64,000 nt of DNA from Methanomassiliicoccaceae archaeon (GCA_963827135.1 CAWGZX010000005.1:123435-187434); one strand, 5' to 3'. Shown: positions 10,867 to 62,537, numbered from the stretch's first letter. Numbers and translations: made by a program. Notes: a model not told the origin generated them from the letters alone.

Positions 10867-11817
10867 TCAGAGCTTGCACAGCTTGAGCAGCTCGTTCCAC
10901 TTGATGTCGACGTTGGCCTGTATCTCGTCAACGACGAACTTCCACTTATCCTTGGTGAGGTGACCGAACCTGCCTTGCGATTTCAGCCAATCCTGGATGG
11001 GGAGTTTCTGCCTTGACCCCTCGGCTATGCGCAGCGATTCGCCAGTCAACCTCCACGTCCCCCTCTCGAACTCGTAGAGAGGCCAGATGCAGGTCTCGAC
11101 CGCCAGCTTGGATATCTCGATGGTCTTCGCCGACTCGTGCCTCCATCCTCTCGGGCAGGGGGAGATGACGTTGATAAAGGCGGGGCCGTTGGCCTCGAAG
11201 CCCTTCGACGACTTCTCGATCATGTCCTTGTAGTTGTGGGGCGAGGCCTGGGCCGCATAGGGCAGATCGTGGGCGATGATTATCTTGGTGAGGTCCTTGG
11301 GGAACTCGCGCTTGCCTGGCACGCATGTGCCAGCGGGGCAGGTAGTGGTCTGCGCCCCCCTTCCGGTCGCGCCTGACCGCTGGATGCCGGTGTTCATATA
11401 GGCCTCGTTGTTGAGGCAGATGTAAAGGAAGTGGTGGCCTCTCTCTATCGCCCCCGAGATCGCCTGGAAGCCTATATCGTAGGTGGCTCCATCGCCTCCG
11501 AAGGTCACGAACCTGATGTCCTCGGTTATCTTGCCTTGGCGCTTGAGGGACAGGTACGCCGCTTCTACACCGGAGATGGTGGCCGCGGCGTTCTCAAACG
11601 CGCTATGGATCCAGGGCACGTTCCAGGAAGTGAACGGATAGATGGACGAGGACACCTCGAAGCAACCGGTGGCGTTGGAAACAACCACGGGCTTTTCGGT
11701 CGCCATGAGGATCTGGCGGGCGATGATTGGCTCGGCGCATCCGGCGCAGAGGCGATGGCCTTCAACGTAACGGTCTGGCCTCTCCGCAAGCACCTTCAGA
11801 TTGGTGACTGCGCTCAT
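10867..11817 (-). CDS. porB: Pyruvate:ferredoxin oxidoreductase beta subunit (TPP-binding)
   Basis: 316 aa with GDG..N TPP motif. ATGA overlap with porA. Confidence 0.92.
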   Translation of the reverse strand: MSAVTNLKVLAERPDRYVEGHRLCAGCAEPIIARQILMATEKPVVVSNATGCFEVSSSIYPFTSWNVPWIHSAFENAAATISGVEAAYLSLKRQGKITEDIRFVTFGGDGATYDIGFQAISGAIERGHHFLYICLNNEAYMNTGIQRSGATGRGAQTTTCPAGTCVPGKREFPKDLTKIIIAHDLPYAAQASPHNYKDMIEKSSKGFEANGPAFINVISPCPRGWRHESAKTIEISKLAVETCIWPLYEFERGTWRLTGESLRIAEGSRQKLPIQDWLKSQGRFGHLTKDKWKFVVDEIQANVDIKWNELLKLCKL

Positions 11818-37020: not shown

Positions 37021-38499
<1,479 letters not shown>

Positions 38500-38659
38500 C
38501 GAGCGAGCCTGTTGAAACCCTTTCGACCGGGGGCATCACCTCCGGTCCGATTTCATTATCTCCCCAGGTGTCATCTTCAGCATCCGTATTACCCAACGGA
38601 CCTAACGATTTGAATTGCGAACAATCTAAATGAGGGGATATCACAACCAAGGTGTGGTC

Positions 38660-39181
38660 ATGAAACATGAACACAGGAACAAGTGCCTCGATGTCGAGAA
38701 GAGGTGCGTCCCAGAGGATACGGCCAAGAGATTATCCGCCATCTTCCTGAAATACCGCAAGGACAAGGACGATCTGCTATCCATTTTACAAGATATCCAG
38801 GATGAGTTCGGATACTTACCCGAGGATGCCCTATATCTTCTATCCAAGGAAATCAAGGTTCCAGAGAATGAGATCTATGGAGTAGCGACATTCTATGCCA
38901 TCTTCAGATTCGAAAGGCCTGCCAAGCACAGGATCACCGTCTGCCTAGGCACCGCGTGCTACGTCAATGGGTCAACGAGGATCCTGGATGAGGCGGAGAG
39001 GAAGCTGGGCATAAAGGTAGGCCAGACCACAGAGGATGGTCAGATCAGCTTAGATCACGTATTCTGCAACGGCTGTTGCGGTCACGCCCCGGTTGTGATC
39101 GTCGACAACGATGTCTCCGGGGGATGGTCCGCAACCAAGCTAAGCGAGACCATCGATAAATTCAAAGAGGGGTCTCCTTGA
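38660..39181 (+). CDS. NuoE/HydC-like [2Fe-2S] thioredoxin-fold subunit
   Basis: CLGTAC...CNGCCGHAP cluster motifs. The stop overlaps the next start (TTGA). Confidence 0.85.
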   Translation: MKHEHRNKCLDVEKRCVPEDTAKRLSAIFLKYRKDKDDLLSILQDIQDEFGYLPEDALYLLSKEIKVPENEIYGVATFYAIFRFERPAKHRITVCLGTACYVNGSTRILDEAERKLGIKVGQTTEDGQISLDHVFCNGCCGHAPVVIVDNDVSGGWSATKLSETIDKFKEGSP

Positions 39182-41058
39182 GCGATGACATCTGGTCTAA
39201 GGCCAAGGTAACCCTAGATGGGCTCAGGAACAGGGATAAGCCTGTGATATACCTTGGATCGGCCTCTTGTGGTCGAGCCGCGGGAGCACTCGCTGTCAGA
39301 CGGGAAATCCAAAGCGAGCTGAAGAGCCATTCGGTCGATGCCGAGGTTGTGAATGTCGGATGCATTGGCCCGTGTTACATGGAGCCACTGGTCTATATCC
39401 AACTCCCTGGTGAGCCGGCGGTTGTCTACAATAACGTGACGGTCGCCGAGGTGAAGGATCTCATCCAGAAGGTAATCGTAGAAAGGATCCATATGAAAGA
39501 CAAGGCCGTTGGCGTCCTGGCCGAATCCCCGGAATTGGGCATGCCGCGGTTCTTCGAACACCCCATGCTCTCGCCTCAGACCAGACTGGTCATGAGGAAT
39601 TGCGGGCTAATCGACCCCTCCAACATCGACCATTATCTCGCCAGCGGCGGCTATCTCGGCCTAAAAAGAGCTCTAGAAATTGGGCCAGAGAAGGTCATCG
39701 AAGAGGTCAAGGGATCTGGGCTTAGGGGAAGGGGGGGAGCGGGCTTCTCCACGGGCATGAAATGGAAGCTGTGCCGTGATGCCCCAGGAGATGTGAAATA
39801 CCTCATCTGCAACGCCGACGAGGGCAACCCAGGGACCTTTGTCAACCGCATTCTGCTCGAGGGCGACCCCCACGCTGTCCTGGAGGGAATGGTCATCGCC
39901 GCCTATGCGATTGGGGCTTCTCAGGGCTTCATCTACATCAGGCACGAATACCCGCTGGTCCGAGAGTACATTCACAAGGCGACCTTGGACATGAGGCGGC
40001 TGGGTCTGCTAGGCGAGAACATATTGGACAGCGGTTTCGATTTCGACATCCAGATAAGGAGAGGGGCGCTGGCTTTCGTCTGTGGCGAGGAGACGGCATT
40101 GATGGCCTCGATAATGGGCCACAGAGGCATGCCCAAGCCCAGGCCGCCCTTCCCGGCCACTTCCGGGCTTTGGGGCAGGCCGACGAACATCAATAACACC
40201 GAGACCATGGGCACAGTCCCGCTTGTCCTCCGCATGGGCGGGCCCAATTATGCCAAGTACGGGATCAAAGGGTCCTCAGGCACGAAGACCTTCTCCCTCG
40301 GTGGCAAGGTGAGACGGACTGGTTGCATCGAGGTCCCCATGGGCACCCCGCTCAGCACCATAGTCTACGATATCGGCGGCGGAATGGTGGACGGCAAGAA
40401 GTTCAAGGCCGTCCAGACAGGGGGGCCGTCCGGAGGTTGCGTCCCAGACTATTTGCTTGATACGGGCGTGGATTACGAGCAGTTGACCAACCTGGGGGCA
40501 ATAATGGGGTCGGGTGGGCTCATTGTGATGGATGAGGACACCTGCATGGTTGACATGGCCAGGTATTTTCTCAGCTTCACCCAAGATGAATCTTGCGGTA
40601 AATGCGTGCCCTGCAGGATAGGCACAAGGCGAATGCTCGATGTGTTGGAGAGGATCACCCAGGGCGATGGCGAGATGGACGACCTGCTGCGGCTGGAGGA
40701 GCTTTGCGAGACAATCAACAAAGGTTCGCTCTGCGGTCTGGGCCAGACCGCCCCAAACCCGATCCTTACCACCCTGAAGTACTTCAGGAACGAGTATGAG
40801 GCACACATCGTCGAGAGGAGGTGCCCGGCCAAGTCCTGCAAGGCGCTGATGCACTTCGAGATCGTTCCAGAGAAGTGTGTCGGCTGTGGGGAGTGCAAGG
40901 AGAAGTGCCTCTCGGCAGCCATCTCGGGATCCGCCAACGCGCCTCATCTGATCGACCAGTCGAAATGCACCAAATGCGGCATCTGCCTGCAGGTCTGCCC
41001 GACAAAAGCCTCGGCCGTGGCCAAGCTCGATGGCGACGGCAAAGGGGTGAGGGCATGA
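39178..41058 (+). CDS. NuoF/HydB-like FMN/NAD(H)-binding subunit with extra N-terminal thioredoxin-like and C-terminal 2x[4Fe-4S] domains
   Basis: GLRGRGGAGFSTG, NADEGNPG, CGKCVPCR. C-terminal CVGCGECKEKC and CTKCGICLQVCP. TTG start. Confidence 0.88.
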   Translation: MSDDIWSKAKVTLDGLRNRDKPVIYLGSASCGRAAGALAVRREIQSELKSHSVDAEVVNVGCIGPCYMEPLVYIQLPGEPAVVYNNVTVAEVKDLIQKVIVERIHMKDKAVGVLAESPELGMPRFFEHPMLSPQTRLVMRNCGLIDPSNIDHYLASGGYLGLKRALEIGPEKVIEEVKGSGLRGRGGAGFSTGMKWKLCRDAPGDVKYLICNADEGNPGTFVNRILLEGDPHAVLEGMVIAAYAIGASQGFIYIRHEYPLVREYIHKATLDMRRLGLLGENILDSGFDFDIQIRRGALAFVCGEETALMASIMGHRGMPKPRPPFPATSGLWGRPTNINNTETMGTVPLVLRMGGPNYAKYGIKGSSGTKTFSLGGKVRRTGCIEVPMGTPLSTIVYDIGGGMVDGKKFKAVQTGGPSGGCVPDYLLDTGVDYEQLTNLGAIMGSGGLIVMDEDTCMVDMARYFLSFTQDESCGKCVPCRIGTRRMLDVLERITQGDGEMDDLLRLEELCETINKGSLCGLGQTAPNPILTTLKYFRNEYEAHIVERRCPAKSCKALMHFEIVPEKCVGCGECKEKCLSAAISGSANAPHLIDQSKCTKCGICLQVCPTKASAVAKLDGDGKGVRA

Positions 41059-43232
41059 TCACCATCAACGGCAAGCAATACCCTTTCAAGGCTGGCCAGA
41101 CCGTGCTTGAGGCCGCTACCGCGGCGGGGATCTACATCCCCACGCTGTGCAACCATCCGCACCTAACCGCGTTCGGCGCCTGCCGGCTATGCCTCGTCCA
41201 GATCGACAACGTTCGCGGGCTGCCCACTGCCTGCACCATCCCGCTCGCGGACGGCATGAACATCCGCACCGAGAGCGAGGACATCCAGAGGCTGAGGCGT
41301 GAGATCATGCTCCTGATGCTGTCGGAGCATCCCTACAGCTGCCTGGTCTGCAAGGACAAGGAGCTGTGCGTGAAGTACAACAGCTGCACCACCAAGGCCG
41401 GGAAGATCACAGGATGCAACCTCTGCTCCTGGAAGGAGGGATGCGAGGTGCGCAAGGTGGTCGACTACCTCAAGATCGACGAGATCACCTACCCCATCCA
41501 TTACCATGACTATCCGTTGGAGAGGGACGAGCCCTTCTTCGACCGGGACTACAACCTCTGCGTGCTCTGTGGCCGTTGCGTGCGCGTATGCGAGGACATC
41601 CGAGGGATAGGCGCCATCGCATTCCTGAACCGCGGGCACGAGACCAGGATAGGGACCGCCTTCGGCATGTCCAACATCGATGCGGGCTGCGTTTTCTGCG
41701 GCGCCTGCCTCGACGTGTGCCCGACCGCGGCCTTGACGGGAAGGGCTACGAAATGGCTGGCGAAGACCGAGAAGAGGACCAAAACCACCTGCAACTTCTG
41801 CAGCGTGGGATGCGCCATGGTCATGGAGGGGCGTAGGGAGACGGTTATGCGAGCCCAGGCCGACCTTGACGGGGCGGCCAACAAGGGACAGGCCTGCGTG
41901 CTCGGTCGCTTCTGCATACCTTCCTTCTTCAACGCCATCGGCCGGCTTCGCTATCCTATGGTACGCAAGGAGGGCGTGCTCACGCCCGTCCAATGGGACG
42001 AGGCCTTGAAGGCTGCAGCGGAGGGCCTAAGCATGTACGACCCGGGCGATGTGCGCATCGTGGTCTCTCCTCAGTTGACCAACGAGACCGCCTACCTGCT
42101 CTTTCGGCTCTCCAAGGAGGTTCTCCCCGGGTCCACCATGGAGCTTGACTCTCCTTTCGATTCATTGGCCTTGGGCGTCTCCAGGGAACTGCTCGGCCAC
42201 ACAGGGTCGAGCGGGATGCTCGCGGCCATCAGCAACGCGGGCACCATCCTCATCGTCGGTGAGGACCTGCGCATCGACCACAGCGTGCTCAGGGTGCGGA
42301 TCAACGCGGCCCACAAGAGAGGCGCCAAGGTCATCTGGCTGGGCCCGATGCCACAAGGCGAGGACCGGCTGGTGGACTATCATTACCCTGGCACGGACTA
42401 CCTTGACAAGCTGGCCGGCCTGCTGCGCAAGATGGCCCACGATGCGCACAACTTCGAGGGAGCAAATGAGTTCCTGGAATCCCTGGTCATGTTCAAGGAC
42501 AGCAAGGAGTCGAGCGAGATGGCCAAGAACATCAGGGGGAGAAGCCTGTGCGTCCTGATAGGCAAGGGCGTGCTGGTCGACCGTCCTGAGGCTGTGCTCA
42601 CCGCGGCTTACAACCTGTTGGTCCTTACGCGCAGCCCTCGCGGCCTGATCCTATTGCTGGAATCGAACTCGCAGGGCATCAGCGATATCACCGATCTTCC
42701 CATGACCACTCCAGGGCCGATGCCTGATGCTAAAGCCTACTACGTGACCTCCGGCAACGCCGAGGTGCCGAAGGACGCTGGCTTCCTGGTGCTTCAGGAC
42801 ATATTCGAGAGCCCGCTGATGGAGAGGGCCAACGTGGTCCTTCCTGGGACAGGCATGCCAGAGGACGCTGGCACCATCACCTCGCTGGAGGGCAGAGTCC
42901 AGGCACTGGACCCGATAGCCCAGCCGCCTGGGATGGCCAAGCCCGATTGGCAGATCGTAGCCAAACTGGCCGGAGAGATGGGCAGCGGCAGTTTCGCTTA
43001 CGACAGCGCGGAGCAGGTGACCTTCGAGCTCTTCAGGGCGACCAGGGTCAAGTCCCTAGGGCTGATGGCCAAGGACAGCATGCCCTTGAAGCTCCACGCC
43101 ATGCCGGAGGTCGGTCCAGCACCTGATCCACCTTACTGCGCGAAGCATGTCCATGTCTATCGGGGGGCGGACATAGTCCATAAGGTCGACGACCTGCGCC
43201 GTCTCTACAAGCTATGGGGGGTGGTGAAGTGA
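41055..43232 (+). CDS. NuoG/FdhA-like Fe-S protein with molybdopterin-oxidoreductase-fold domain lacking an obvious catalytic Cys/Sec
   Basis: MITINGKQYPF.. 2Fe-2S ferredoxin N-terminus, several 4Fe-4S motifs and CNFCSVGC. ATGA overlap with the previous gene. The upstream part of the ORF-track 803-aa ORF is an artefact. Confidence 0.8.
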   Translation: MITINGKQYPFKAGQTVLEAATAAGIYIPTLCNHPHLTAFGACRLCLVQIDNVRGLPTACTIPLADGMNIRTESEDIQRLRREIMLLMLSEHPYSCLVCKDKELCVKYNSCTTKAGKITGCNLCSWKEGCEVRKVVDYLKIDEITYPIHYHDYPLERDEPFFDRDYNLCVLCGRCVRVCEDIRGIGAIAFLNRGHETRIGTAFGMSNIDAGCVFCGACLDVCPTAALTGRATKWLAKTEKRTKTTCNFCSVGCAMVMEGRRETVMRAQADLDGAANKGQACVLGRFCIPSFFNAIGRLRYPMVRKEGVLTPVQWDEALKAAAEGLSMYDPGDVRIVVSPQLTNETAYLLFRLSKEVLPGSTMELDSPFDSLALGVSRELLGHTGSSGMLAAISNAGTILIVGEDLRIDHSVLRVRINAAHKRGAKVIWLGPMPQGEDRLVDYHYPGTDYLDKLAGLLRKMAHDAHNFEGANEFLESLVMFKDSKESSEMAKNIRGRSLCVLIGKGVLVDRPEAVLTAAYNLLVLTRSPRGLILLLESNSQGISDITDLPMTTPGPMPDAKAYYVTSGNAEVPKDAGFLVLQDIFESPLMERANVVLPGTGMPEDAGTITSLEGRVQALDPIAQPPGMAKPDWQIVAKLAGEMGSGSFAYDSAEQVTFELFRATRVKSLGLMAKDSMPLKLHAMPEVGPAPDPPYCAKHVHVYRGADIVHKVDDLRRLYKLWGVVK

Positions 43233-44083
43233 ACAAGGTCGTCGAGCGCACGGAGCTGGTCCCTAACGTGCACAAGATGGTCATAGAGGCGCCCTTGCTG
43301 GCCAAGAAGGTTAGGCCGGGCCAGTTCCTTATCGTCATGGCCGACGAGAAGGGCGAGCGCATACCCATCTCCATCGGCGATTGGGACGAGAAGGCTGGAA
43401 CCGTCACCATCTTCTTCCTGGAGGCGGGCGTCTCCACCATGAAGCTGGCGCAGAAGAAGGCCGGGGACGACCTCTTCGCGGTGGTGGGGCCGCTGGGCCA
43501 TCCGGCCAAGATCGCGAAGTATGGGACGGTCCTACTTGGAGGAGGGTGTTATGGCATCGGAGGCATCACGTCCATAGCCAAGGCCATGAAGGCCGCTGGT
43601 AACAAGGTCATCGTGGTCATCGAGGCGCGGTCCAAGTACCTGCTCTATAACAAGGAGGTCCTCCGCAAAATCGCCGACGAGTACCTCGAGACCACCTCCG
43701 ACGGCAGCAGCGGGGTAAGGGGCAAGGTCCAGGACGTCGTGCAATTCATCACCAGCCAGCAGAAGGTGGACCTAGCCTACTTCATCGGCTGCTCGTTCAT
43801 GATGATGAACTGCTCAAATGCCACCAAGGGGAGGCATCTGAAGACCATGGTCTCGCTCAACGCCCTCATGCTCGATGGCACGGGCATGTGTGGCGTGTGC
43901 CGCGTCAGCGTGGGCGGGCACACGAAGTTCGCCTGCGTGGACGGCCCGGAGTTCGACGGCCATCAGGTGGACTGGCTGCAGATGATCCAGCGCAAGTCCA
44001 TGTACCTCCAGGAGGAGATGCTGGCATACCAATACCACACCTGCCGGGCGCTGGCGAAGAAGGCGCAGGAGGAGGGCGACTGA
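43214..44083 (+). CDS. NfnA/SudB-like subunit (ferredoxin-NADP reductase fold, [2Fe-2S])
   Basis: ..ERTELVPNVHKMVIEAP.. and C-terminal GTGMCGVCRV...FACVDGP. Start is ATG 43214 or GTG 43229. Confidence 0.82.
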   Translation: MGGGEVNKVVERTELVPNVHKMVIEAPLLAKKVRPGQFLIVMADEKGERIPISIGDWDEKAGTVTIFFLEAGVSTMKLAQKKAGDDLFAVVGPLGHPAKIAKYGTVLLGGGCYGIGGITSIAKAMKAAGNKVIVVIEARSKYLLYNKEVLRKIADEYLETTSDGSSGVRGKVQDVVQFITSQQKVDLAYFIGCSFMMMNCSNATKGRHLKTMVSLNALMLDGTGMCGVCRVSVGGHTKFACVDGPEFDGHQVDWLQMIQRKSMYLQEEMLAYQYHTCRALAKKAQEEGD

Positions 44084-44084
44084 C

Positions 44085-45530
44085 ATGGCGGAAGGGTCGC
44101 AGGAAAAGGTCAAGGCCCCCCGGCAGAGGATGCCCGAGCAGCACCCCTTGGTCCGGGCGAGGAACTTCAACGAGGTGCCCACTGGCTACTCCCCCGAGAC
44201 GGCGCAGCTCGAAGCTAGCCGCTGCCTTCAGTGCAAGAAGCCCTCCTGCATGGAGGGCTGCCCGGTGGGCGTCAAAATACCCGAGTTCATCAAGCTTATC
44301 CGCGAGGGTGACTTCGTGGCCGCCGCCCGCAAGATCAAGGAGACCAACGCCCTGCCTGCGGTCTGCGGGCGGGTGTGCCCACAGGAGGTCCAATGCGAGG
44401 GTTCCTGCATCCTTAGCAAGAAGGGCGATCCGGTGGCCATAGGCCATTTGGAGCGCTTTTGCGCCGACTTCGAGAGGGGCGCGCATCAGGTATGCGTTCC
44501 AGTGAAGGCCGCCCCTAACGGCAAGAGGGTAGCGGTGGTCGGCTCGGGGCCGGCCGGACTGACCGTGGCCGGCGATCTGATCCTTCTTGGCTACCAGGTA
44601 ACCATCTTCGAGGCGCTGCACAAGCCTGGTGGTGTGCTGGTCTACGGCATCCCTGAGTTCCGCCTGCCCAAGGACATCGTGGAGGCGGAGGTGAGGTACC
44701 TGCAGAGCCTCGGGGTGGACCTGAAATTGAACATGGTGATCGGAGCGGTGTGGAGCATCAAGGAGCTCATGGAGGTCGATGGGTACGACGCCGTGTTCAT
44801 AGGTGTCGGGGCCGGGACCCCGCAGTTCCTGAACATGCCAGGGGAGAACCTCTGCGGCGTGTACTCGGCCAATGAGTACCTGACCAGGGCCAACCTGCTG
44901 AAGTCCTACCAGTTCCCCAGGTACGACACCCCCCTGGCCAAGGGGAGGAGCGTGGCGGTGGTAGGGGGAGGCAACGTGGCCATGGACAGCGTGAGGACCG
45001 CGCTCAGGCTCGGCGCGGACAACGCCTTCATCGTCTATCGTCGCTCCGTCGAGGAGATGCCCGCTCGCAGGGAGGAGATCCATCACGCGCAGCAGGAAGG
45101 GGTGCAGTTCAAGATCCTCACCAACCCGGAGGAGGTCATCGGCGACGAGCGCGGATGGGCCAAGGCCTTGAAATGCATCAAGATGGAGCTGGGAGAGCCA
45201 GATGCCAAGGGGCGCAGGAAGCCGGTGCCTGTGAAGGGCTCCTGGTTCGACATCCCTGTGGACCTTGTGATCGTGGCCATCGGAACCAACGCCAACCCGC
45301 TCCTCACGGCCAACGTGCCGGACCTGAAGCTGAACGAGAGGGGCTACATCCTAACTGATGAGCACGGGCGCACCAGTGTGCCCCGGGTCTATGCCGGGGG
45401 GGACATCGTGACCGGCTCGGCCACGGTCATCCAGGCCATGGGAGCTGGGAGGAGGGCGGCGAACGCCATCCACAAGGACCTCACCGGAAAGGACGCCGAA
45501 CGGCCAGACGCCTGCAGCGCCACAATGTGA
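44085..45530 (+). CDS. NfnB/SudA/GltD-like subunit (2x[4Fe-4S], FAD, NAD(P)H)
   Basis: CLQCKKPSCMEGCPV..ICGRVCPQE..C, plus GSGPAGL and GGGNVAMD dinucleotide motifs. Confidence 0.88.
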   Translation: MAEGSQEKVKAPRQRMPEQHPLVRARNFNEVPTGYSPETAQLEASRCLQCKKPSCMEGCPVGVKIPEFIKLIREGDFVAAARKIKETNALPAVCGRVCPQEVQCEGSCILSKKGDPVAIGHLERFCADFERGAHQVCVPVKAAPNGKRVAVVGSGPAGLTVAGDLILLGYQVTIFEALHKPGGVLVYGIPEFRLPKDIVEAEVRYLQSLGVDLKLNMVIGAVWSIKELMEVDGYDAVFIGVGAGTPQFLNMPGENLCGVYSANEYLTRANLLKSYQFPRYDTPLAKGRSVAVVGGGNVAMDSVRTALRLGADNAFIVYRRSVEEMPARREEIHHAQQEGVQFKILTNPEEVIGDERGWAKALKCIKMELGEPDAKGRRKPVPVKGSWFDIPVDLVIVAIGTNANPLLTANVPDLKLNERGYILTDEHGRTSVPRVYAGGDIVTGSATVIQAMGAGRRAANAIHKDLTGKDAERPDACSATM

Positions 45531-50435: not shown

Positions 50436-51800
50436 ATGGGTAAACCGATGGATGATGCCACTTCTTTCCAGAGCGTAGTGCAACTTTTCCTCTTGAGATA
50501 TCATGGTTGCGCGGCCAGTGCTAGCTCGAGCCAAGATGAGGGGGAGTTCCTGAAGGTCCAAGAGAGGAACTACCGCCTGCTCCTAAGCTACGGTCTCGAT
50601 CCTGAGTTCAGGCTCGCGATAACCAAGGAGATCGCTTCCACCCCTTCAAGCGGTGAATGGCGGGAGGAGTTGGGCTTCGTCCTCGGCCTGGAGCTCGTAC
50701 TATCTAAGAATGGTAACTGGCTCTACAGACGCATAATCTCAGAGGAGAGGAAAAAAGAGCTAGAGGAAGCGTATCCAGAGGTCCTCGGGCAGGCCAAAGG
50801 CAGCATGTCCTCGATCGATGAGCTGCTTTCCGCGACCACCTCGGCAAGAAGGAGCGCGGAGCCCGAGTTCGCGCCTCTCAAAACCGCGGTGGACAAACTG
50901 TTCCCCGAAGGCTTCGAGGTGACCAGCGCCATTCAAGCCCTACGCCTGCACGGCTCCTTCCTCGATCTCGAGCCAGGGTGGATCGAAGATCTCGATGACT
51001 TCCAGCGCGCCCTGGCCGAGAACATGCGCCAAATCATGCTGAAGCTCGGTGACAGGTCGGAGGTGGACAGTAACCAGTTGGAGCAGGTGCAAGGCTGCAC
51101 CGTCTCCGTGGAGCTGATGTTCTGCATCGCCAATGAGGCGGTGGCCTTGCGTTGGTTCCGGGGGTTGAGCCCGGAGGAGCAGGAGAAGGTCCTGGCCTCA
51201 ACGATGGAGCTGACATGGGACGAGGAGAGATTGACCAAGGCCCTTGAAAGACGCTTCGCATGGTGCAAGGACCCTGTCCAAGGTTCTCGGGCGGCGATGG
51301 ATGCCGCGGAGTCCTATAGGCAGTACGGCGTGAGCGATGCTGCCATCTATATATATCAAAAGTTGCTGGACGACGCCAGGGTCGAGGACCGGGAGAGGGC
51401 GGAGTCGCACAATCGAATGGCCGTCATCCATCGCGAGGAGGGTCGGCAGCACGATGCTTTCCTTGAATTCCAAGAGGCGGGCATCATCTGGGAGGCGCTC
51501 AAAGCGCCATGGGAGGGGGCGGTGACCTCAGCCTTCGTCGCCGAGGGGTACAGCACAGAGGAGAAGAAGGAGAAGGCGAACAAGTACCTGGAAGAGGCTT
51601 TCGTGATCATGTCAAGGGCCACGGAGGGCAAGGAGAAGATGGCCCGGGGGTACTTCTATCTGGCAGGCTGCGCCAATTCCACCGGTCGTTTGGACCTGGA
51701 GAGGCTCGCGCTGGAGAAGGGGCTGGCGTTCGCCCAATCCCTTGAGGATGGAGAGCTGTTCATCGAGATGAACCACCGTTTGATGAGCCTGCCGAGCTAG
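50436..51800 (+). CDS. Hypothetical protein (454 aa) with TPR-like helical C-terminal region
   Basis: Long ORF with good coding composition, divergent from nikR. No catalytic motif recognised. Confidence 0.5.
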   Translation: MGKPMDDATSFQSVVQLFLLRYHGCAASASSSQDEGEFLKVQERNYRLLLSYGLDPEFRLAITKEIASTPSSGEWREELGFVLGLELVLSKNGNWLYRRIISEERKKELEEAYPEVLGQAKGSMSSIDELLSATTSARRSAEPEFAPLKTAVDKLFPEGFEVTSAIQALRLHGSFLDLEPGWIEDLDDFQRALAENMRQIMLKLGDRSEVDSNQLEQVQGCTVSVELMFCIANEAVALRWFRGLSPEEQEKVLASTMELTWDEERLTKALERRFAWCKDPVQGSRAAMDAAESYRQYGVSDAAIYIYQKLLDDARVEDRERAESHNRMAVIHREEGRQHDAFLEFQEAGIIWEALKAPWEGAVTSAFVAEGYSTEEKKEKANKYLEEAFVIMSRATEGKEKMARGYFYLAGCANSTGRLDLERLALEKGLAFAQSLEDGELFIEMNHRLMSLPS

Positions 51801-51853: not shown

Positions 51854-52762
51854 ATGGGAGAGAAGGATTCGAAGCAATTGATCGAGAGGATCAGGGTAGA
51901 GCCGGGCAAGAGGATCGACCTTAAAGATTTCCCAACTAACTGGGAGGACACTGAGAGGTTCTCCATGAACGGAGCTAGGCTGTCCAAGGAGAGTGCCGAC
52001 GAGCTTATGGCCAAGAGCCAAAAGGAGCTTGCCAAGATGCAGGACGTGCTCTGGGCCAGCAACAAGTACTCGCTACTGATCATCCTTCAAGGTATGGACG
52101 CCGCGGGAAAGGACGGCATCATCAAGCACGTAATGTCCGGGGTGAACCCGCAGGGGTGCGAGGTCACCTCTTTCAAGGCACCCACCGCCGAAGAGCTGGA
52201 TCATGACTTCCTCTGGCGCTGCTTTAAGGTCATGCCCGGCAGGGGGAAGATCGGCATCTTCAACCGCTCCTACTATGAGGAGGTCCTCGTGGTCAGGGTC
52301 CATCCCGACTTCCTGGTAGGGCAAAGGCTTCCTTACAAGGACTATGGGCAGGACTTCTGGAATGAGCGCTATCACAGCATAAACGAGCTGGAGAAGCACC
52401 TATCCCGAAATGGGACAGTGATCATCAAATTCTTCCTCAACGTGTCGCAGGAAGAGCAAAGGACCCGCCTCTTGGAGAGAATCGAGACCCCGGAGAAGAG
52501 ATGGAAGTTCAACCCCAATGACGTCAAGGAGAGGGACCTATGGCTAAGGTATAAGGACGCCTATCAGGAGATGCTTGAAAGGACCAGCACGGAATCCGCT
52601 CCTTGGTATGTCCTGCCAGCAGATCAAAAATGGCTCTCCCGAGTCCTAGCGGCCCAGGTCATCATGTCCGAGATCAAGAGGCTGGGCCTGGAATACCCGG
52701 AACTGCCCAAGGAGTACCTGAAGTCCGTGGAGGACGCCAAGGCAAAGCTCCAGAAGGGGTAA
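51854..52762 (+). CDS. ppk2: Polyphosphate kinase 2 family (polyphosphate:nucleotide phosphotransferase)
   Basis: Walker A GMDAAGKDG, FNRSYYE motif. Confidence 0.9.
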   Translation: MGEKDSKQLIERIRVEPGKRIDLKDFPTNWEDTERFSMNGARLSKESADELMAKSQKELAKMQDVLWASNKYSLLIILQGMDAAGKDGIIKHVMSGVNPQGCEVTSFKAPTAEELDHDFLWRCFKVMPGRGKIGIFNRSYYEEVLVVRVHPDFLVGQRLPYKDYGQDFWNERYHSINELEKHLSRNGTVIIKFFLNVSQEEQRTRLLERIETPEKRWKFNPNDVKERDLWLRYKDAYQEMLERTSTESAPWYVLPADQKWLSRVLAAQVIMSEIKRLGLEYPELPKEYLKSVEDAKAKLQKG

Positions 52763-52827
52763 GGCGCCTTGGTGCACTGGCATTTAATATTCATTCTACC
52801 AATACCAGCCGGACCAACAGTGAAAAT

Positions 52828-53565
52828 ATGAAGCTGCCATTGCCGGACGTCGGATCGATCGTTGGCAGAGAAAACCAACCACCGAAGCAGATGATCGCTT
52901 TCGTGGGCGAGACCCTATCGCTCGGGGACCGCCTTTCCGAGCTGCTCTACGGCGTCCTGATGGTAACCTCGATATCGGGCCTGGTCCTGATCGGCGAGCC
53001 TGGCGGAGAGAACGACCTGTATTACATGCTGGTCGTGCTCTTCATCACCATCGTCATGTGGGGCTTGCTCGATGGGATATCCTATGCTTTGCTGAGCTCG
53101 GCAAATAGGGCTGAGCGCGAGAGCCTCATGGAATCTCTTGAGACGGAAAAAGACCAATTGAAGCGTAAGCAGGCGATCGAAGAGGACCTGGATGGAACAC
53201 TGGTATCCAGGCTGGACGAGGATTCCAAGCAGAAGATCATAGACATTGTCAGCAACGGATTGCCTCGGAACGGGGAGAGGATGACGAAGAACAGGCTGAC
53301 CAGCTACGAGAAGAGCATCGTCCTCGCCGCGTTCCTGCTGGACTTCATACCCTTGATCATCCTGGTCTTCCCATACCTCTTCTTCGACAACGTCAAGACC
53401 GCTGCGCTTACTTCACACATAATTGCCTTGGGAATGTTCGTCATAATTGGATTCTACTACGCAAAATACGCGCACTTGAACAAATGGAAAGGGGCTTTCA
53501 TTTGCGGGCTCCTTGGCCTGATTCTGGTGATATTCGCAGAATCGACCAACATGGTATTGATCTAG
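52828..53565 (+). CDS. Five-TM membrane protein, distant VIT1/CCC1-like topology (paralog 1)
   Basis: ATG 52828. Two TMs, an acidic helical cytoplasmic insert, then three TMs. Paralogous to the next gene. Confidence 0.45.
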   Translation: MKLPLPDVGSIVGRENQPPKQMIAFVGETLSLGDRLSELLYGVLMVTSISGLVLIGEPGGENDLYYMLVVLFITIVMWGLLDGISYALLSSANRAERESLMESLETEKDQLKRKQAIEEDLDGTLVSRLDEDSKQKIIDIVSNGLPRNGERMTKNRLTSYEKSIVLAAFLLDFIPLIILVFPYLFFDNVKTAALTSHIIALGMFVIIGFYYAKYAHLNKWKGAFICGLLGLILVIFAESTNMVLI

Positions 53566-53576
53566 GAGGCGAAGAT

Positions 53577-54251
53577 ATGGCCCTGCCCTCATACCGGAAC
53601 TTCCTGGGCGCGTACACGTCCGCGAGCGAGAGGTATGCTGAGGCCTTCTATGGCATCATCATGGTGACAGGCTGTACCGGAATGGTCAGCCTGGGGGTGC
53701 CAAAGGAGGAGGCTGGGGTCCAGTTCATGCTCTGGACGGCGTTGTTCGTGAACATACTCTGGGGCCTCATCGACGGTTTCACGGTGGTTTACGGGTCGAT
53801 GGTGGACGAGGTCGCCTCCGATGTGGCGGTGGGGGACGTCAGGTCGGGCAAGGATAAGGAGCGGGCTACTGACGAGGTCCTAGGAGCCTTGGATGATTCG
53901 CTCATCGGCAAGCTGAGCGCCCAGGACAAGGCGAAGGTGGTCGAGGTCATTCGCACCGCCAAGAGCTATAGCCCTTTCGCCAATAAGCTGGGTTGGCAGG
54001 AGATCAAGAGGATCCTGGCCATCTTCTCGATAGATTTCATAACGGTGTTCCCAGTCTCCATACCCTTCATCTTCATGACCGACATCACCGACGCGGTCAG
54101 GGTTTCCTTCATCATCGCCACTTTCCTGATGGCCTATCTCGGCTACCAATGGGCCAAGTACGCGCGGATGAGGAGATGGAGGATCGCCGTGTACTTCTCA
54201 TCGTTCACCATCTTCCTGCTGATCATCTCATTCATCCTGGGCGGGATCTAG
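53577..54251 (+). CDS. Five-TM membrane protein, distant VIT1/CCC1-like topology (paralog 2)
   Basis: ATG 53577 with GGAGG upstream. Same architecture and shared motifs (YG..MVT, LWGL[IL]DG). Confidence 0.45.
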   Translation: MALPSYRNFLGAYTSASERYAEAFYGIIMVTGCTGMVSLGVPKEEAGVQFMLWTALFVNILWGLIDGFTVVYGSMVDEVASDVAVGDVRSGKDKERATDEVLGALDDSLIGKLSAQDKAKVVEVIRTAKSYSPFANKLGWQEIKRILAIFSIDFITVFPVSIPFIFMTDITDAVRVSFIIATFLMAYLGYQWAKYARMRRWRIAVYFSSFTIFLLIISFILGGI

Positions 54252-54344
54252 GCTGGGTCGTCACCCTGTCAAGGCCATGCGGCATTCTCTAAGGTACGGT
54301 CATTTCCAGACCTCACAGTGGCACTATGTTAGATAGTGGAGTAC

Positions 54345-55565
54345 TCAACTTCGCCCTTCCTCTGCCAAAGCCCGGTCAACGAAGTTACGCTTGCGTAGGG
54401 CGACGCGCGTGGAATCGAGCAATATGGTGATGACCATAAGCTGCAGAAGGACGCCCACTACCCATCCCCACTCCCAATCGATGAAGGGTTCCCCGATGGA
54501 GTTGTTATTGGTGAAAAGGAGGCTGAACAGTAGAGGGAGGTAGATGACCAGGCACCTTATCACCAGCCATCGGTTCTCAACGCCCCAGATGAGCAGGAGG
54601 GCGATAGGTAACGTGTAGTAACTGGCAGTGGTTCGAGGATAGGTCAAGATGAAGGCGGTTAGGACGATCAGCATGCCTTCCAAGAGGGTGTGTTTTCTCT
54701 TCAATCCGATGTAGTATGCGAGGATGAGGGCCCCGATGGTCAGCACGAGGTAGAACCATGAGGGGAGCTGAAGCCCGCCCATGCTCAAGAAGTCCCATAT
54801 GTTCAGGTTGGAAGTGGGTGCATCATCCGGTCCAGAATTGAGGAAATAATAAAAGGGGAAGCTTAGGAATTCCACGGGGCAGACTATCAGGAAGGGCAGA
54901 CATACCAAGAGGGACAATCCGACGACAATCCCCAATAAAACCAACCTCTCTCTCCTGGACCTCGCAGCCCTCCACTGAAAAGGGAACAAGAAGCCGTTGA
55001 TCAGCTTGGTCCATATCCCGATCGTCATGGCCACGGCGCTCCAACGCAGCCTACCTATGACGGCAAGGAGGATGGAAAGGACGAATACCCAGACCACGAT
55101 CGCCTCGTCCTCGATGGCGAACACGGTCTCTATGGTGCTCACCGGGATGAAAATGAAGATCAGCGCGACCCAGAAAGCCTTGGCATCATCGTAGCGGCGA
55201 AGGGCCCAGTAGAGCGAGAGCGAGGTCAGAAGGATGAACACCGAGAACCATGTCTGGTAGGCCAATTCGCTTCCGCCCGCCAGCTGCGCCGGGATCATGA
55301 GGTAGACTATCAGGGGCGGGGATTCGCAAGGTATGTCGCGGTACAGCCAAAGGCCGTCGAGTATGCCTTGGGTCCTCTCCCTGTAGAAGGAGATGTCGAT
55401 CGGGGCACCGACGTGGGCGTCGAGGAAATCGCGGAGGAAGAGTGCGTCAAAGGCGATTAGCGCTCCGAAGAAGAGGGCCCAGACCAGTATCAGAACATAG
55501 GCTCGTCTGCCGGGCGGAATCGAGCCTAGCCTGTCGTTCAGTCCTTGGAGGAGGCCCTGTGGCAT
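54345..55565 (-). CDS. Polytopic membrane protein, GT-C/DUF2029-like glycosyltransferase (tentative)
   Basis: 406 aa with more than 10 predicted TMs. The early loop resembles GT-C enzymes. Confidence 0.4.
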   Translation of the reverse strand: MPQGLLQGLNDRLGSIPPGRRAYVLILVWALFFGALIAFDALFLRDFLDAHVGAPIDISFYRERTQGILDGLWLYRDIPCESPPLIVYLMIPAQLAGGSELAYQTWFSVFILLTSLSLYWALRRYDDAKAFWVALIFIFIPVSTIETVFAIEDEAIVVWVFVLSILLAVIGRLRWSAVAMTIGIWTKLINGFLFPFQWRAARSRRERLVLLGIVVGLSLLVCLPFLIVCPVEFLSFPFYYFLNSGPDDAPTSNLNIWDFLSMGGLQLPSWFYLVLTIGALILAYYIGLKRKHTLLEGMLIVLTAFILTYPRTTASYYTLPIALLLIWGVENRWLVIRCLVIYLPLLFSLLFTNNNSIGEPFIDWEWGWVVGVLLQLMVITILLDSTRVALRKRNFVDRALAEEGRS

Positions 55566-55712
55566 CCCTGATGGATTCCCAAGGCGTTATTTCAACGTTT
55601 CCGGAAGAATAGGGGGCGGGGGCTGTTCTTCAGAGAAAGGAAGCTAGCGCCCTATCGGTCGCTCCATGTTCCAAAGCCGAATGGTACGAAGGTAGCCTCG
55701 TCCCATCGTCGG

Positions 55713-56480
55713 TCATTTCCGAGGGGGGTAATCCATCATCCTGGCTACCGAGGACTTCGACCCCGCGATCCCCTCTGGAGATGACGTCTCCAAGGGATCG
55801 GGCACCTCAGGAGCCTGGTCGACCGGGACGGGGCGCCTTTCTTTACCAGATCGTGAGACGAAACGCTTGAGCGAAGGGTGCAGCTCGAGGTCCTCGATGA
55901 ACCCCTCGCAGGTATGGCGCTTGAGATAGAACCTCGCGGACACGGTTACGATGAGGGCAGCGGCCGAGTTGCAGACCATGTCCCTGATGGTGTCCCAGGG
56001 ACTATACTGCATGTTGATCCCTGTTAAATTGTCGACGACGAGCTCGAGGACCTCCCAATAGATGCTGAACGTCATCACGATCAGGGCGATGAACAACGGG
56101 ATCCATCTCGGGGTGAAGTGCGTCTCCTTGTCGAAATGCTCGACCGCCATGAGGGAATAGAAGACCAGGAGGGCGATGGTAATCGTCGAAATCGTGTGGG
56201 TGATGGTGTCATACCACACGATGTCGTCGTACCTCATTAGAAGGACGCCGTACGCATGGACGAATATCGACGCCTCGATCATCAGGATCAATGCCAGCGG
56301 CAACCTCATGACACCGGCATGGCGGAAGAGCATCGGTATTAGGCAGAACAGGGCGCAGAGCACCCCGGTCCAAAGCTTGTACGCGGTGCGGTCGGTCCCG
56401 ACTGCCGAAAGTACCGTCATGAGGAGGAGCACCCCCGCAGCGAACATGCAGACGAGGTCGGAGAGGTCGATCTTCCTCAT
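55713..56480 (-). CDS. Membrane protein, possibly VanZ-like
   Basis: ATG 56480 overlaps the upstream stop (ATGA). WYDTITHT.. and YWEVLE..SPWDTIRDMVCNSAAA resemble VanZ motifs. Confidence 0.35.
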   Translation of the reverse strand: MRKIDLSDLVCMFAAGVLLLMTVLSAVGTDRTAYKLWTGVLCALFCLIPMLFRHAGVMRLPLALILMIEASIFVHAYGVLLMRYDDIVWYDTITHTISTITIALLVFYSLMAVEHFDKETHFTPRWIPLFIALIVMTFSIYWEVLELVVDNLTGINMQYSPWDTIRDMVCNSAAALIVTVSARFYLKRHTCEGFIEDLELHPSLKRFVSRSGKERRPVPVDQAPEVPDPLETSSPEGIAGSKSSVARMMDYPPRK

Positions 56481-57094
56481 GCCTCTCCTCCAGGGCACAA
56501 CCGGGACAGTTCCAGGGAATCGACGCGCTTCAAGTACTCATTGAAAACCACGGCATAGACGATCGTGGTGAAGGTCGTCACCGCCATCGGAAGCATGAGC
56601 ATCATGTTGACCACGTCGTTCTCCAAGGTGTTGCTGAAGTCGCCATTGTATAATGGGTAACCAGTGGAGGCCATCCAATAGATGGTGGAGAACGTCCACA
56701 GCACCGAAATCGAGCAGGCGAAGGTCAATGCGAACAGGACCACCCACCTTCTCGGCAGCGAGAGCTCAGTCCTGGCGTTCATGAAAACGGCAATCATCAT
56801 TCCCAATGCCATGCTGGCACACGCCTGGATCGCCAAAGATACCTGATAGTAGTACTCGAAATCGACGAACTGGCCCGCAATGATCAGGACGACGAAGGCG
56901 ACCAGCGGAATGATGGCGATGCCCATCAGATGCCGGTCGTACCCTTTGTTTGGGTCGCCCGTCGCGACCATGGGCGCGCACACCACCGCGATGCCTATGA
57001 CAGGAACGATCAGGCTATCCCAATCGCCTTTCCACACGGACATCGCCGCTATGGCGAAGGAGAGGATGATGATGACAAGGCTGTACCGGTTCAT
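56477..57094 (-). CDS. Hypothetical polytopic membrane protein
   Basis: 205 aa with about 6 TMs. Coupled to the downstream gene. Confidence 0.5.
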   Translation of the reverse strand: MNRYSLVIIILSFAIAAMSVWKGDWDSLIVPVIGIAVVCAPMVATGDPNKGYDRHLMGIAIIPLVAFVVLIIAGQFVDFEYYYQVSLAIQACASMALGMMIAVFMNARTELSLPRRWVVLFALTFACSISVLWTFSTIYWMASTGYPLYNGDFSNTLENDVVNMMLMLPMAVTTFTTIVYAVVFNEYLKRVDSLELSRLCPGGEA

Positions 57095-62433: not shown

Positions 62434-62537
62434 GCCGAGGTGGCCCAGACCGGTAAGGCGCAAGCCTGGAAAACTTCTGGTGATTCCAGCAAGCTTGTGT
62501 CCGCAAGGACTCGGGAGTTCAAATCTCCCCCTCGGCG
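62434..62537 (+). tRNA. tRNA-Ser (anticodon GGA) with 20-nt intron at the canonical 37/38 position (62472-62491)
   Basis: Acceptor GCCGAGG/CCTCGGC. Anticodon stem CAAGC/GCTTG, loop CTGGAA|intron|A. Long variable arm GTCC-GCAA-GGAC. T-arm GGGAG-TTCAAAT-CTCCC. The intron's TTCCAG pairs with CTGGAA. Confidence 0.85.

Follow-up and report, generated by a model that had tools for sequence, protein, structure and literature searches.

Anaerobes that live at the thermodynamic limit rely on electron bifurcation to keep NADH, NADPH, and ferredoxin in balance. In the literature, NfnSL and the Stn/Nfn-Bfu enzymes appear as alternatives that share no partners. However, a 64,000-nucleotide stretch of DNA from a Methanomassiliicoccaceae archaeon (GCA_963827135.1 CAWGZX010000005.1:123435-187434), hereafter the window, carries five adjacent genes (38660–45530) that encode a full NfnSL-type pair together with a full Stn-type core. 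Do these genes specify two enzymes that happen to share an operon, or one complex in which the two modules are joined? The computational analysis described here leans toward a single complex.

A five-gene module recurs in many phyla

All five ORFs (open reading frames) are present on the + strand, and they are coupled at their junctions as a preliminary description of this DNA had stated. The first gene, bfuC (38660–39181), encodes a NuoE/HoxE/HydC-like thioredoxin-fold [2Fe-2S] subunit of 173 aa. The second, bfuB (39178–41058), has a TTG start that overlaps the bfuC stop and encodes a 626-aa HydB/NfnB/StnB-type flavoprotein containing flavin mononucleotide (FMN). It is followed by bfuA* (41055–43232), whose 725-aa product is a NuoG/Fdh-alpha-like iron–sulfur (Fe-S) connector with a cofactor-less molybdopterin fold, and by nfnS* (43229–44083; GTG start), which encodes an NfnA/NfnS (PyrK-like) subunit of 284 aa with flavin adenine dinucleotide (FAD), a [2Fe-2S] cluster, and a remodeled nucleotide pocket. 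The last gene, nfnL (44085–45530), specifies an NfnB/NfnL (GltD-like) subunit of 481 aa with FAD, an NADP(H)-binding site, and 2x[4Fe-4S]. Profile searches bear out the family assignments first proposed, namely NuoE/HydC-like for BfuC (PF01257 at 4.5e-44), NuoG/FdhA-like for BfuA (PF13510, a partial PF10588, Fer4, PF04879, and PF00384), NfnA/SudB-like for NfnS (PRK06222, 338 bits vs a cutoff of 220), and NfnB/SudA/GltD-like for NfnL (TIGR01316, 588 bits vs 472). The NCBIfam models for NuoE, NuoF, and NuoG all score under cutoff with the window proteins.

The junctions are tight. The bfuC stop and bfuB start share the sequence TTGA (39178–39181) with GAGGGG just 5′, and the bfuB stop and bfuA start share ATGA (41055–41058) with GGGGTGAGGG just 5′. 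The bfuA stop TGA (43230–43232) overlaps an in-frame GTG at 43229 (GTGA, 43229–43232), and the nfnS stop TGA (44081–44083) is separated from the nfnL ATG at 44085 by a single C (TGAcATG, 44081–44087; 1-nt gap). A purine-rich, Shine–Dalgarno-like stretch lies 5′ of each junction.

A survey of gene neighborhoods for the same five-gene order had been suggested as a check on this arrangement. One genome per GTDB species was scanned with a BfuA-like alignment, followed by tblastn with the five window proteins, and 82 loci were analyzed; residue conservation was assessed over 54 sets. The order C-B-A-S-L is complete on one strand in 53 of the 82 loci, and S and/or L directly follows A in 71, with most of the remaining loci ending at a contig edge. 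Median gaps are −4 nt for C-B, −1 for B-A, −1 for A-S, and +37 for S-L. The carriers include Desulfobacteraceae and other Desulfobacterota, Syntrophorhabdus, Thermoplasmatota, Nitrospirota, and Aminicenantes; Thor-, Prometh-, and Hodarchaeal Asgard archaea; Dehalococcoidia and Anaerolineales (Chloroflexota); and Planctomycetota, Zixibacteria, WOR-3, Bacteroidales, Ignavibacteria, Holophagales, Clostridia, and Ammonifex (Bacteroidota and Bacillota being included). Because the order and the tight gaps recur across the surveyed loci, the five-gene cluster is a widespread conserved module of a dozen or more phyla and is not peculiar to this archaeon. Likewise, the recurrence of the order and of overlapping junctions in 53 complete loci from many phyla places the arrangement, to judge from these sequences, far beyond chance.

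A cysteine pair in NfnS and its fusions with BfuA point to one complex

Among proteins of known structure, NfnS matches P. furiosus NfnI (5jca_S, 3.9e-72) and 4ylf_A (2.3e-67). Its [2Fe-2S] ligands (D216, C221, C224, and C236) are invariant and the ERIP motif for FAD is kept. However, GGGCYGIG and GC[TS]xMM stand where the NAD(H) motifs are expected. The cysteines of these motifs, C107 in GGGC[YF]GIG and C188 in GC[TS]xMM, are invariant in 54/54 cluster-associated NfnS proteins. In contrast, 10 stand-alone NfnS proteins (T. maritima NfnA, the two NfnS proteins of P. furiosus, and seven paralogs from the same loci) carry the FNR-type NAD(P)-binding motifs GGGVGVAP and VGPxxMM and have no such pair. 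An exhaustive HMMER search of 1.84 billion representative proteins, in which the top 150 matches were scored at positions 107 and 188, returned Cys/Cys in 23, Gly/Pro in 74, and Cys/Pro in 3, demonstrating that the two positions covary. The Cys/Cys type makes up 17 of the first 18 matches, lower matches are nearly all Gly/Pro, and an N-terminal extension is present in 12 of the 23 Cys/Cys representatives. These patterns set NfnS* apart as a subfamily of its own, with a covarying Cys pair in place of both NAD(H)-binding motifs.

One possible use of the pair is that it forms a redox-active dithiol/disulfide or a metal site near the flavin, such that a fourth, non-nicotinamide substrate (a disulfide, polysulfide, thioredoxin-like protein, or other acceptor) is served there. 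The strict covariation of C107 and C188, their location on both of the loops with which canonical NfnS binds NAD(H), and the aromatic residue (Y/F108) that follows C107 in all members are consistent with this idea, as are the first isolation of a Pyrococcus NfnI homolog as a "sulfide dehydrogenase" (PMC6405883) and the thermodynamic awkwardness of serial double bifurcation among NADPH, NADH, and ferredoxin alone. Yet the two cysteines could equally be structural or part of an interface with BfuA, and no thioredoxin, sulfur-carrier, or similar partner gene recurs beside the cluster in the surveyed loci. We consider a fourth substrate of this kind, which would make the enzyme something other than a plain transhydrogenase, unlikely.

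A separate observation concerns P0186 (1229 aa, JGI), a Fdh-alpha-like protein with a PF01568 cap that is fused to a Cys-pair NfnS domain (GGCYGIG, GCNFMM). To judge from this protein, formate dehydrogenases that are genuine or nearly so may also be served by the NfnS* type.

The link between NfnS and BfuA is most direct where the two proteins form a single polypeptide. In a Promethearchaeota locus (L018), BfuA and NfnS are encoded by a single 1090-aa ORF and the gene order is C, B, A-S, L. When this fusion was used as a query, about 75 of 120 listed 90%-identity clusters were found to combine PF10418 with BfuA-type domains; 36 of these fusion clusters are 983–1102 aa long with at least 94% query coverage, and the others are ~830–900 aa. 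The sources are Loki-, Thor-, Hel-, and Promethearchaeota (mostly Asgard) together with Deltaproteobacteria, and the assemblies come from NCBI, JGI, ENA, and Logan. BfuA is N-terminal and NfnS C-terminal in all six fusion proteins inspected, and the fusion point coincides with a conserved motif at the BfuA C terminus (YRGxxI...VxDL). The window BfuA matches one half of a bacterial fusion (P0194) with 39% identity, and the window NfnS matches the other half with 49%. An AlphaFold2 model of another fusion (P0122; 36 homologs) has a mean predicted local distance difference test score (pLDDT) of 76, with both halves confident and a disordered linker, and Foldseek matches its N-terminal part to Fdh/NuoG folds and its C-terminal part to 5jca_S. 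In the Stn/NfnABC enzymes, an NfnL-like domain is fused into the same BfuA scaffold, which ties the NfnL fold to BfuA through an independent fusion.

Two further lines of evidence were obtained from the survey. A second, canonical NfnS plus NfnL pair is found within 10 kb of the cluster in at least five loci, and two further loci have a canonical NfnS at the contig end; therefore, the NfnS–NfnL pair of the cluster is not redundant with an ordinary Nfn. In addition, pairwise identities of BfuA and NfnS correlate with r = 0.874, the highest value among the ten subunit pairs. The correlation for NfnS–NfnL is 0.839, and every pair within BfuCBA is also below BfuA–NfnS, although shared phylogeny feeds into all of these values, which count as support only. 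On the strength of the BfuA–NfnS fusions, the Cys-pair signature of NfnS, the non-redundancy with ordinary Nfn, and the co-evolution of BfuA with NfnS, we conclude that the five proteins probably constitute one NADP(H)-linked Bfu-type complex.

BfuB and BfuC match the core of soluble bifurcating enzymes

For BfuC, the nearest NCBIfam models are HoxE and NuoE, all under cutoff, and the ligands of the C1 [2Fe-2S] cluster, C95, C100, C136, and C140, do not vary across the family (54/54). BfuB contains PF01512, PF10589, and a 2x[4Fe-4S] C terminus. The proposal that it is of the HydB type rather than a respiratory NuoF is supported by alignment of residues 23–615 to NfnB, StnB, and HydB proteins at E values of 1e-222 to 1e-182. 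The best matches in the PDB are 9bov_B (NfnB of Caldicellulosiruptor saccharolyticus, Csac; 1.1e-221), 9n5u_B (NfnB of Thermococcus sibiricus, Tsi; 3.9e-217), 8oh5_B (StnB, 1.8e-212), 7t2r_B (NiFe-HydB, 1.8e-206), and FeFe-HydB chains (1e-201 to 1e-182). For respiratory NuoF and FdsB, the similarity is confined to the BfuB core (1e-105 to 1e-122), the NuoF chains covering residues ~145–545 at ~1e-105. BfuB also has both of the extra parts ascribed to it earlier, a thioredoxin-like domain at the N terminus and a 2x(CxxCxxCxxxC) ferredoxin module at the C terminus.

The cofactor ligands of the core are well preserved. The C-terminal Fer4 module has two invariant CxxCxxCxxxC motifs (C567/570/573/577 and C597/600/603/607; B3/B4), and the B1 ligands C473/476/479/519 are invariant. 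The window protein has the B2/Zn-site ligands C456, H543, C549, and C554, none of which varies within the family (54/54); every one of 1,558 Bfu sequences carries this set of three Cys and one His, and non-bifurcating homologs lack it (PMC9304861, Suppl. Fig. 9). The N-terminal domain has cysteines at C31, C62, and C66, of which C31 is Cys in only 31/54, a variability that resembles enzymes in which Zn replaces cluster B5 (PMC11829005). Collectively, the ligands identify BfuBC as a predicted HydBC/StnAB-type bifurcating core with FMN, an NAD(H) site, B1, Zn/B2, C1, and the B3/B4 ferredoxin-side clusters.

The window protein departs from its family at two places in the nucleotide pocket. It reads DEGNPGTFVNRI and GALAFVCGEE (residues 214–226 and 296–305), where the family reads DEGDPGAFMDRS and GAGAFVCGEE in 53/54. 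The window sequence DEGNPGTFVNR thus differs from the Bfu consensus DEGDPGAFMDR, and the pocket changes are Asp to Asn, Ala to Thr, Met to Val, and Gly to Leu, with the Phe kept. The residues of DEGDPGAFMDR and GAGAFVCGEE line the NADH/FMN pocket (PMC9304861, Suppl. Fig. 10). The same variant is present in the BfuB of a related locus (L084, 7124–9004; 79% identical), and the more distant Methanomassiliicoccales L087 has the canonical sequence. A conserved Asp near FMN N5 (BamH Asp219) is thought to stabilize the semiquinone; this residue may plausibly correspond to N217 of the window protein. The BfuB of this lineage may therefore have altered nucleotide use or specificity, or a differently tuned flavin.

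The first three genes could also be read as a NuoEFG NADH-input (N) module of an Fpo-/Nuo-like membrane complex, with NfnSL as its NADPH entry. Many archaeal and bacterial 11-subunit Nuo/Fpo-like complexes are without NuoEFG (PMC5736913, PMC9723677), and a Nuo-Bfu type has been predicted (PMC9304861). In that predicted type, however, the BfuABC genes are located inside the nuo operon (PMC9304861). No nuo/fpo genes lie near the five genes in the window, and none are adjacent to the cluster in any surveyed locus. Moreover, BfuB has the N- and C-terminal extensions of the soluble bifurcating enzymes and is closest to NfnB/StnB. These considerations make an N module a very improbable reading.

Some loci vary the composition of the module. 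In L086 (5879–9004), L042, L049, L061, and L074, a fused GltD/NfnL-like domain occupies the place of the BfuB C-terminal ferredoxin domain. The L086 fusion is 1041 aa long, and BfuA, NfnS, and NfnL still lie downstream, giving two NADPH-type modules per cluster. In two Chloroflexota loci, L022 (7581–9470) and L048 (11825–13597), a second, Stn/NfnA-like fusion follows BfuA and replaces NfnS and NfnL; it combines a BfuA N terminus with an NfnL-like domain (~41% identity).

BfuA resembles an Fe-S connector without a pterin site

BfuA aligns to Csac NfnA (9bov_A) over residues 6–102 and 559–1100 and to StnC over 573–1088. The gaps in these alignments lead to the view that BfuA equals Csac NfnA/StnC minus the inserted GltD/NfnL domain. 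In both of those proteins the Fdh-like domain is pterin-free, with an A2-A4-A5 branch that is considered a remnant (PMC11829005, PMC10482914). The Fe-S ligands of BfuA are invariant in the family, including those of A1 (C32, C43, C46, and C60), the N5-type His cluster (H92, C96, C99, and C105), two ferredoxin-type clusters (C169/172/175/179 and C212/215/218/222), and A5 of the Fdh-like domain (C246, C249, C253, and C281). A second tandem motif, K114...C121-x2-C124-x5-C130, is likewise invariant. The single FS4C motif of HydA-type proteins aligns to this second motif, the NuoG/FdsA motif aligns to the first, and the NfnL insertion of Csac NfnA falls between the positions of the two. From these alignments, the A3 arm of BfuA appears to be longer by one cluster.

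The N-terminal 430 residues of BfuA align best to NAD-Fdh alpha subunits (9wxb_B and 6tg9_A). This similarity, the JGI name of the identical protein, and the retention of PF01568 in the P0186 fusion could all be taken to indicate an electron-bifurcating or NADP-dependent formate dehydrogenase next to an Nfn, as automatic annotation implies. The absence of an intact formate dehydrogenase site had been noted from the start, and a closer look agrees: a Pfam search of BfuA gives no match to the PF01568 cap domain, and Asp-Ser occupies the positions aligned to a Cys-His of R. capsulatus FdsA that we take to be its catalytic pair. These columns are not conserved in the family, and the corresponding domain of Csac NfnA/StnC is pterin-free. 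The missing cap domain and the missing catalytic Cys/Sec-His lead us to reject BfuA as a formate dehydrogenase, and for the locus as a whole this explanation is scarcely credible. BfuA* is instead recognizable as the predicted Fe-S wire of Nfn-Bfu/Stn, with the Fdh-like domain kept but with no GltD insert and no pterin site.

NfnL keeps the features of a bifurcating subunit

The closest structures to NfnL are 4ylf_B (1.2e-168) and 5jca_L (2.2e-151), and the protein is 58% identical to T. maritima NfnB and 54% to P. furiosus NfnI. R193, the Arg at FAD N5, is present in 54/54 family members and E105, a Glu cluster ligand, in 53/54. Both Cys clusters are complete in 53/54, except at C94, where 43/54 have Cys and 10 have Thr. 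A ligand of the E105 type is replaced by Lys in Nfn-Bfu, and the Arg and Glu distinguish bifurcating NfnL (PMC12018979, PMC10482914). NfnL is accordingly identified from its residues as a predicted canonical NADP(H)-binding subunit with the hallmarks of a bifurcating FAD. A specialized clade of cluster-associated NfnL was considered and is not borne out, as stand-alone paralogs interleave in a neighbor-joining tree. The specialization evidently resides in NfnS and not in NfnL.

A tentative electron path and the case for two enzymes

If the five proteins form one complex, it would be a soluble Fe-S flavoprotein of composition BfuC-BfuB-BfuA*-NfnS*-NfnL. NfnS*L would dock through NfnS* on the Fdh-like C-terminal domain of BfuA* (the A5/A4 arm, a dead remnant in Stn), making contact with one BfuA arm or both. 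NfnS* would no longer reduce NAD+ but would relay electrons between the FAD of NfnL and the BfuA chain, which in turn would lead to the FMN of BfuB, where NAD(H) and ferredoxin are handled. Such an enzyme could interconvert NADPH, NADH, and ferredoxin as an unfused Nfn-Bfu/Stn-like NADPH:NAD+/ferredoxin oxidoreductase in which NfnL still provides a second potential bifurcation center and, possibly, another site for ferredoxin. In Thermoplasmatota, a link to NADP-glutamate dehydrogenase would mean that the complex supplies or disposes of NADPH. The original caution that donors and acceptors cannot be read from the sequence remains correct for stoichiometry.

A more specific version of this model can be put forward, which we consider less likely than not. 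It envisages two wired bifurcation centers (the NfnL flavin, and the FMN of BfuBC with its Fe-S clusters). The NAD(H) pocket of NfnS would have been converted by the Cys pair to an electron gate onto the Fdh-like arm or to a dithiol site for a fourth substrate, the stoichiometry or acceptor would be unlike those of Nfn and Stn, and the complex would represent an unfused intermediate ancestral to the Stn/Nfn-Bfu fusion.

A competing possibility is that two independent enzymes share the operon, an ordinary NfnSL and a BfuABC-type enzyme whose third substrate module is elsewhere or absent. NfnL cannot be separated from stand-alone NfnL in the neighbor-joining tree and keeps all hallmarks of bifurcation, NfnS and NfnL are 42–58% identical to characterized NfnAB, and metagenomic papers annotate the halves separately as "FdhA-HydBC" and "NfnAB." However, this reading must contend with the frequency of BfuA–NfnS fusions, with an A-S junction that is typically a 1–4 nt overlap across many phyla, with a Cys pair in NfnS* that supplants the NAD(H) motifs and tracks association with BfuA, and with the canonical NfnSL paralogs that lie beside the cluster. 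It would also leave BfuA* alone without a catalytic site. We judge a pair of separate enzymes to be distinctly unlikely.

Several observations nevertheless weigh against a single complex or against the path proposed for it. Stand-alone NfnL proteins nest among the cluster-associated ones, and T. maritima NfnB, to which the window NfnL is so similar, works without Bfu partners. The conserved R193, E105, and both [4Fe-4S] clusters of NfnL would be needless for a simple Stn-like linear path. Five loci (L007, L037, L056, L068, and L082) have C-B-A without S-L downstream despite enough flanking sequence, and the AlphaFold2 model of the fusion has a predicted template modeling score (pTM) of 0.60. 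The deviation of near-invariant NADH/FMN-pocket residues in the window BfuB makes NAD(H) use in this lineage less certain. Finally, for serial double bifurcation, in which the NfnL flavin would send one branch to ferredoxin and BfuBC would bifurcate the other (4 NADPH → 6 Fd(red) + NADH), the mean acceptor potential is ~−445 mV vs −380 mV for NADPH (E′ values of PMC9304861, Table 1). A strictly serial scheme would be endergonic and could run only toward NADPH, and the chemistry is therefore not simply the sum of two known enzymes.

Boundaries and neighbors of the cluster

The starts of two genes required a choice between alternatives. The most likely start of bfuC is the ATG at 38660 rather than 38630, because the AAGGTGnGGnCATG context (Shine–Dalgarno/ATG) is conserved and because the homolog in an 85%-related locus (L084), which was used to compare starts and the upstream region, is called at 173 aa. 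For nfnS, an in-frame ATG is present at 43214, but the GTG at 43229 is the most likely start, because the L084 homolog has a gene call of 284 aa and because, in the longer form, the alignment to the NCBIfam model begins at residue 7. An exact 626-aa entry for the TTG-started BfuB is present in a public protein collection, and the bfuA frame (41055–43232) sits within a longer GTG-started ORF. Long antisense ORFs (43905–45086, 41187–41993, and 40276–40947) have no Pfam match and were dismissed as chance ORFs in GC-rich DNA.

Directly upstream is gdhA (37165–38499, +), which encodes an NADP-specific glutamate dehydrogenase and is not part of the proposed complex. Its assignment as NADP-type holds (NF006929, 762 bits vs a cutoff of 536), and its start is likely the ATG at residue 40 of the listed ORF. 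Between gdhA and bfuC is a terminator-like hairpin (38525–38547, +) with a 9-pair stem and a T-rich tail, which is kept in L084 through base changes that preserve pairing. It is likely an archaeal terminator or an RNA element, and its presence suggests a separate promoter for the five genes in this lineage. In L087, the gdh–bfuC gap is only 20 nt, leaving no room for the hairpin. At the other end, a convergent class-I LysRS gene ends 9 nt past nfnL, and thus the five-gene unit is bounded on both sides. An Rfam search found no RNA element in the five-gene region, and a sigma-70 promoter scan gave 1 site vs 2.3 expected and is uninformative for an archaeon.

Farther out, the 5′ neighbors encode topoisomerase VI B and A, a DUF3795 protein, and a GNAT acetyltransferase, and LysRS is followed on the 3′ side by a Na+/H+ exchanger and a pyrophosphatase. 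As noted previously, neither a hydrogenase gene nor an intact formate dehydrogenase gene is found within ~10 kb, and POR alpha/beta (10867–12974) is encoded in the same window, as are glnA and phosphoenolpyruvate (PEP) synthase. Homologs of the window proteins at 65–87% identity carry Methanomassiliicoccales names.

The gdh gene is directly upstream of the cluster in the window, L084, a JGI contig, and L087, and it is near the cluster in the Thermoplasmatales loci L003, L005, and L007. In ~15 Aminicenantes-type loci, a gene resembling alanine dehydrogenase (AlaDH; TIGR00518 at 333 bits, under the cutoff of 392) is directly upstream of bfuC, making a six-gene unit, and in one of them (L013, 5488–6612) it overlaps the bfuC start codon. 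A PntA-like gene is beside the cluster in two Nitrospirota loci. The recurrent neighbors are lineage-specific, and no universal sixth gene (a ferredoxin, hydrogenase, or similar) was found across the surveyed loci. The gdh and AlaDH-like neighbors, both of amino-acid-dehydrogenase type and found in unrelated lineages, hint at a tie between the module and pyridine-nucleotide-dependent amino-acid metabolism. Separately, a ~1000-aa PPDK_N (PEP-utilizing) protein with a faint response-regulator match adjoins the cluster in two distantly related loci, L003 (2455–5526) and L086 (905–3856, −); the ordinary PEP synthase of the window is far off, at 14288–16588.

Three other features of the window were recorded. 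A tRNA at 62434–62537 (+) has an Rfam match of 104 nt (43.9 bits), is unreported by ARAGORN, and is presumably an intron-containing archaeal tRNA. The gatB gene, downstream of gatA (699–2036), is apparently split, with its GatB_N and GatB_Yqey domains in adjacent ORFs (1904–2860 and 2862–3389) in different frames; a frameshift, a sequencing error, or a real split are all possible. Adjoining a PPK2 gene (51854–52762) is a run of ORFs of 454, 320, 255, 406, 261, and 205 aa (50436–51800 and 52603–57094) that match no Pfam family at E ≤ 1e-6.

Annotation and significance

In public collections, entries identical to window proteins go under the names "formate dehydrogenase (NADP+) alpha subunit," "NADH-quinone oxidoreductase subunit F," and "glutamate synthase (NADPH) small chain," and public annotation thereby divides the unit into three unrelated enzymes. 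In the searchable open-access literature we found no biochemical characterization of the arrangement and no description of the five-gene unit or of the BfuA–NfnS fusions, although an account in a subscription journal is possible. A review of Nfn is silent on such neighbors (PMC6405883).

Should the five proteins prove to be a single enzyme, metabolic reconstructions would be wrong for all carriers where they give "formate dehydrogenase," "NuoF," and "glutamate synthase small chain," or "FdhA-HydBC" plus "NfnAB." Among the carriers are many uncultured lineages (Asgard archaea, Thermoplasmatota, Aminicenantes, Dehalococcoidia, and Desulfobacterota) that are dominant in anoxic sediments. The module makes testable the origin of the Stn fusion, electron transfer through the "remnant" Fdh arm of BfuA, and the coupling of two bifurcation modules outside benzoyl-CoA reductase. 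In Methanomassiliicoccales, the complex is a candidate supplier of NADPH to the NADP-glutamate dehydrogenase encoded beside it.

Comparison with known systems

The nearest relatives of BfuB over its full length are found in the Nfn-Bfu/Stn enzymes (Csac NfnABC, 9bov; T. sibiricus, 9n5u; Sporomusa ovata StnABC, 8oh5). These enzymes also share a NuoE/HydC-type BfuC and the N-terminal [2Fe-2S], Fe-S, and pterin-less Fdh/NuoG-like domains of BfuA, and their NfnL-type flavin module similarly implies NADP(H) as a third substrate. However, the NADPH module encoded in the window consists of a separate NfnL and NfnS and is not inserted in BfuA. It has been stated that Stn lacks an NfnA homolog, and canonical Nfn is without a HydBC homolog (PMC10482914). 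Further differences are the Glu cluster ligand and N5 Arg of the window NfnL, in place of which Nfn-Bfu has a Lys and a displaced Arg (PMC12018979), the tandem second N5-like motif of the window BfuA, and the site of attachment, which the fusions place at the Fdh-like C-terminal domain that is a non-functional remnant in Stn.

NfnSL/NfnAB (T. maritima, 4ylf/4yry; P. furiosus NfnI, 5jca) share with the window proteins the cofactor ligands and bifurcation hallmarks of NfnL as well as the NfnS fold, FAD motif, and Asp+3Cys [2Fe-2S] site. In contrast to these enzymes, NfnS* lacks the GGGVGVAP and VGP motifs, has C107/C188, and is encoded beside BfuA or fused to it.

The Bfu Type 2/3 enzymes (NiFe-HydABCSL, 7t2r; Wor-Bfu; Fdh-Bfu) have the same BfuBC core and a BfuA that wires it to add-on subunits. 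The Bfu family types were defined by Schut et al. 2022 (PMC9304861), and none has an NfnSL add-on, the only Nfn type being the fused three-subunit Type 1 (PMC9304861, Supplementary Table 1). The add-on here differs in itself coming from another bifurcating family. We therefore classify the predicted complex as a Bfu-family enzyme with an NfnSL-type heterodimer as its add-on module, a variant outside the published classification.

The class II benzoyl-CoA reductase BamB-I (bioRxiv 10.64898/2026.04.10.717634) sets a precedent, in that one complex hard-wires a HydBC-type module to an unrelated second bifurcation module. There, the second module is of the HdrA type and benzoyl-CoA is handled at a tungsten site, whereas here it is of the NfnSL type and no further catalytic subunit is encoded.

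Finally, in the comparison with the NAD-dependent FdsABG (R. capsulatus, 6tg9) and the acetogen NADP-FdhAB, the NuoE/NuoF/NuoG-like trio and the Fe-S domains of the alpha subunits show good alignment. They differ from the window proteins, which have no Mo/W site or cap domain and in which BfuB has the bifurcating-type N- and C-terminal domains absent in FdsB. The Moorella NADP-Fdh, composed of an Fdh alpha subunit and a GltD-like beta subunit, provides a precedent for the docking of a GltD-type protein on such a scaffold.

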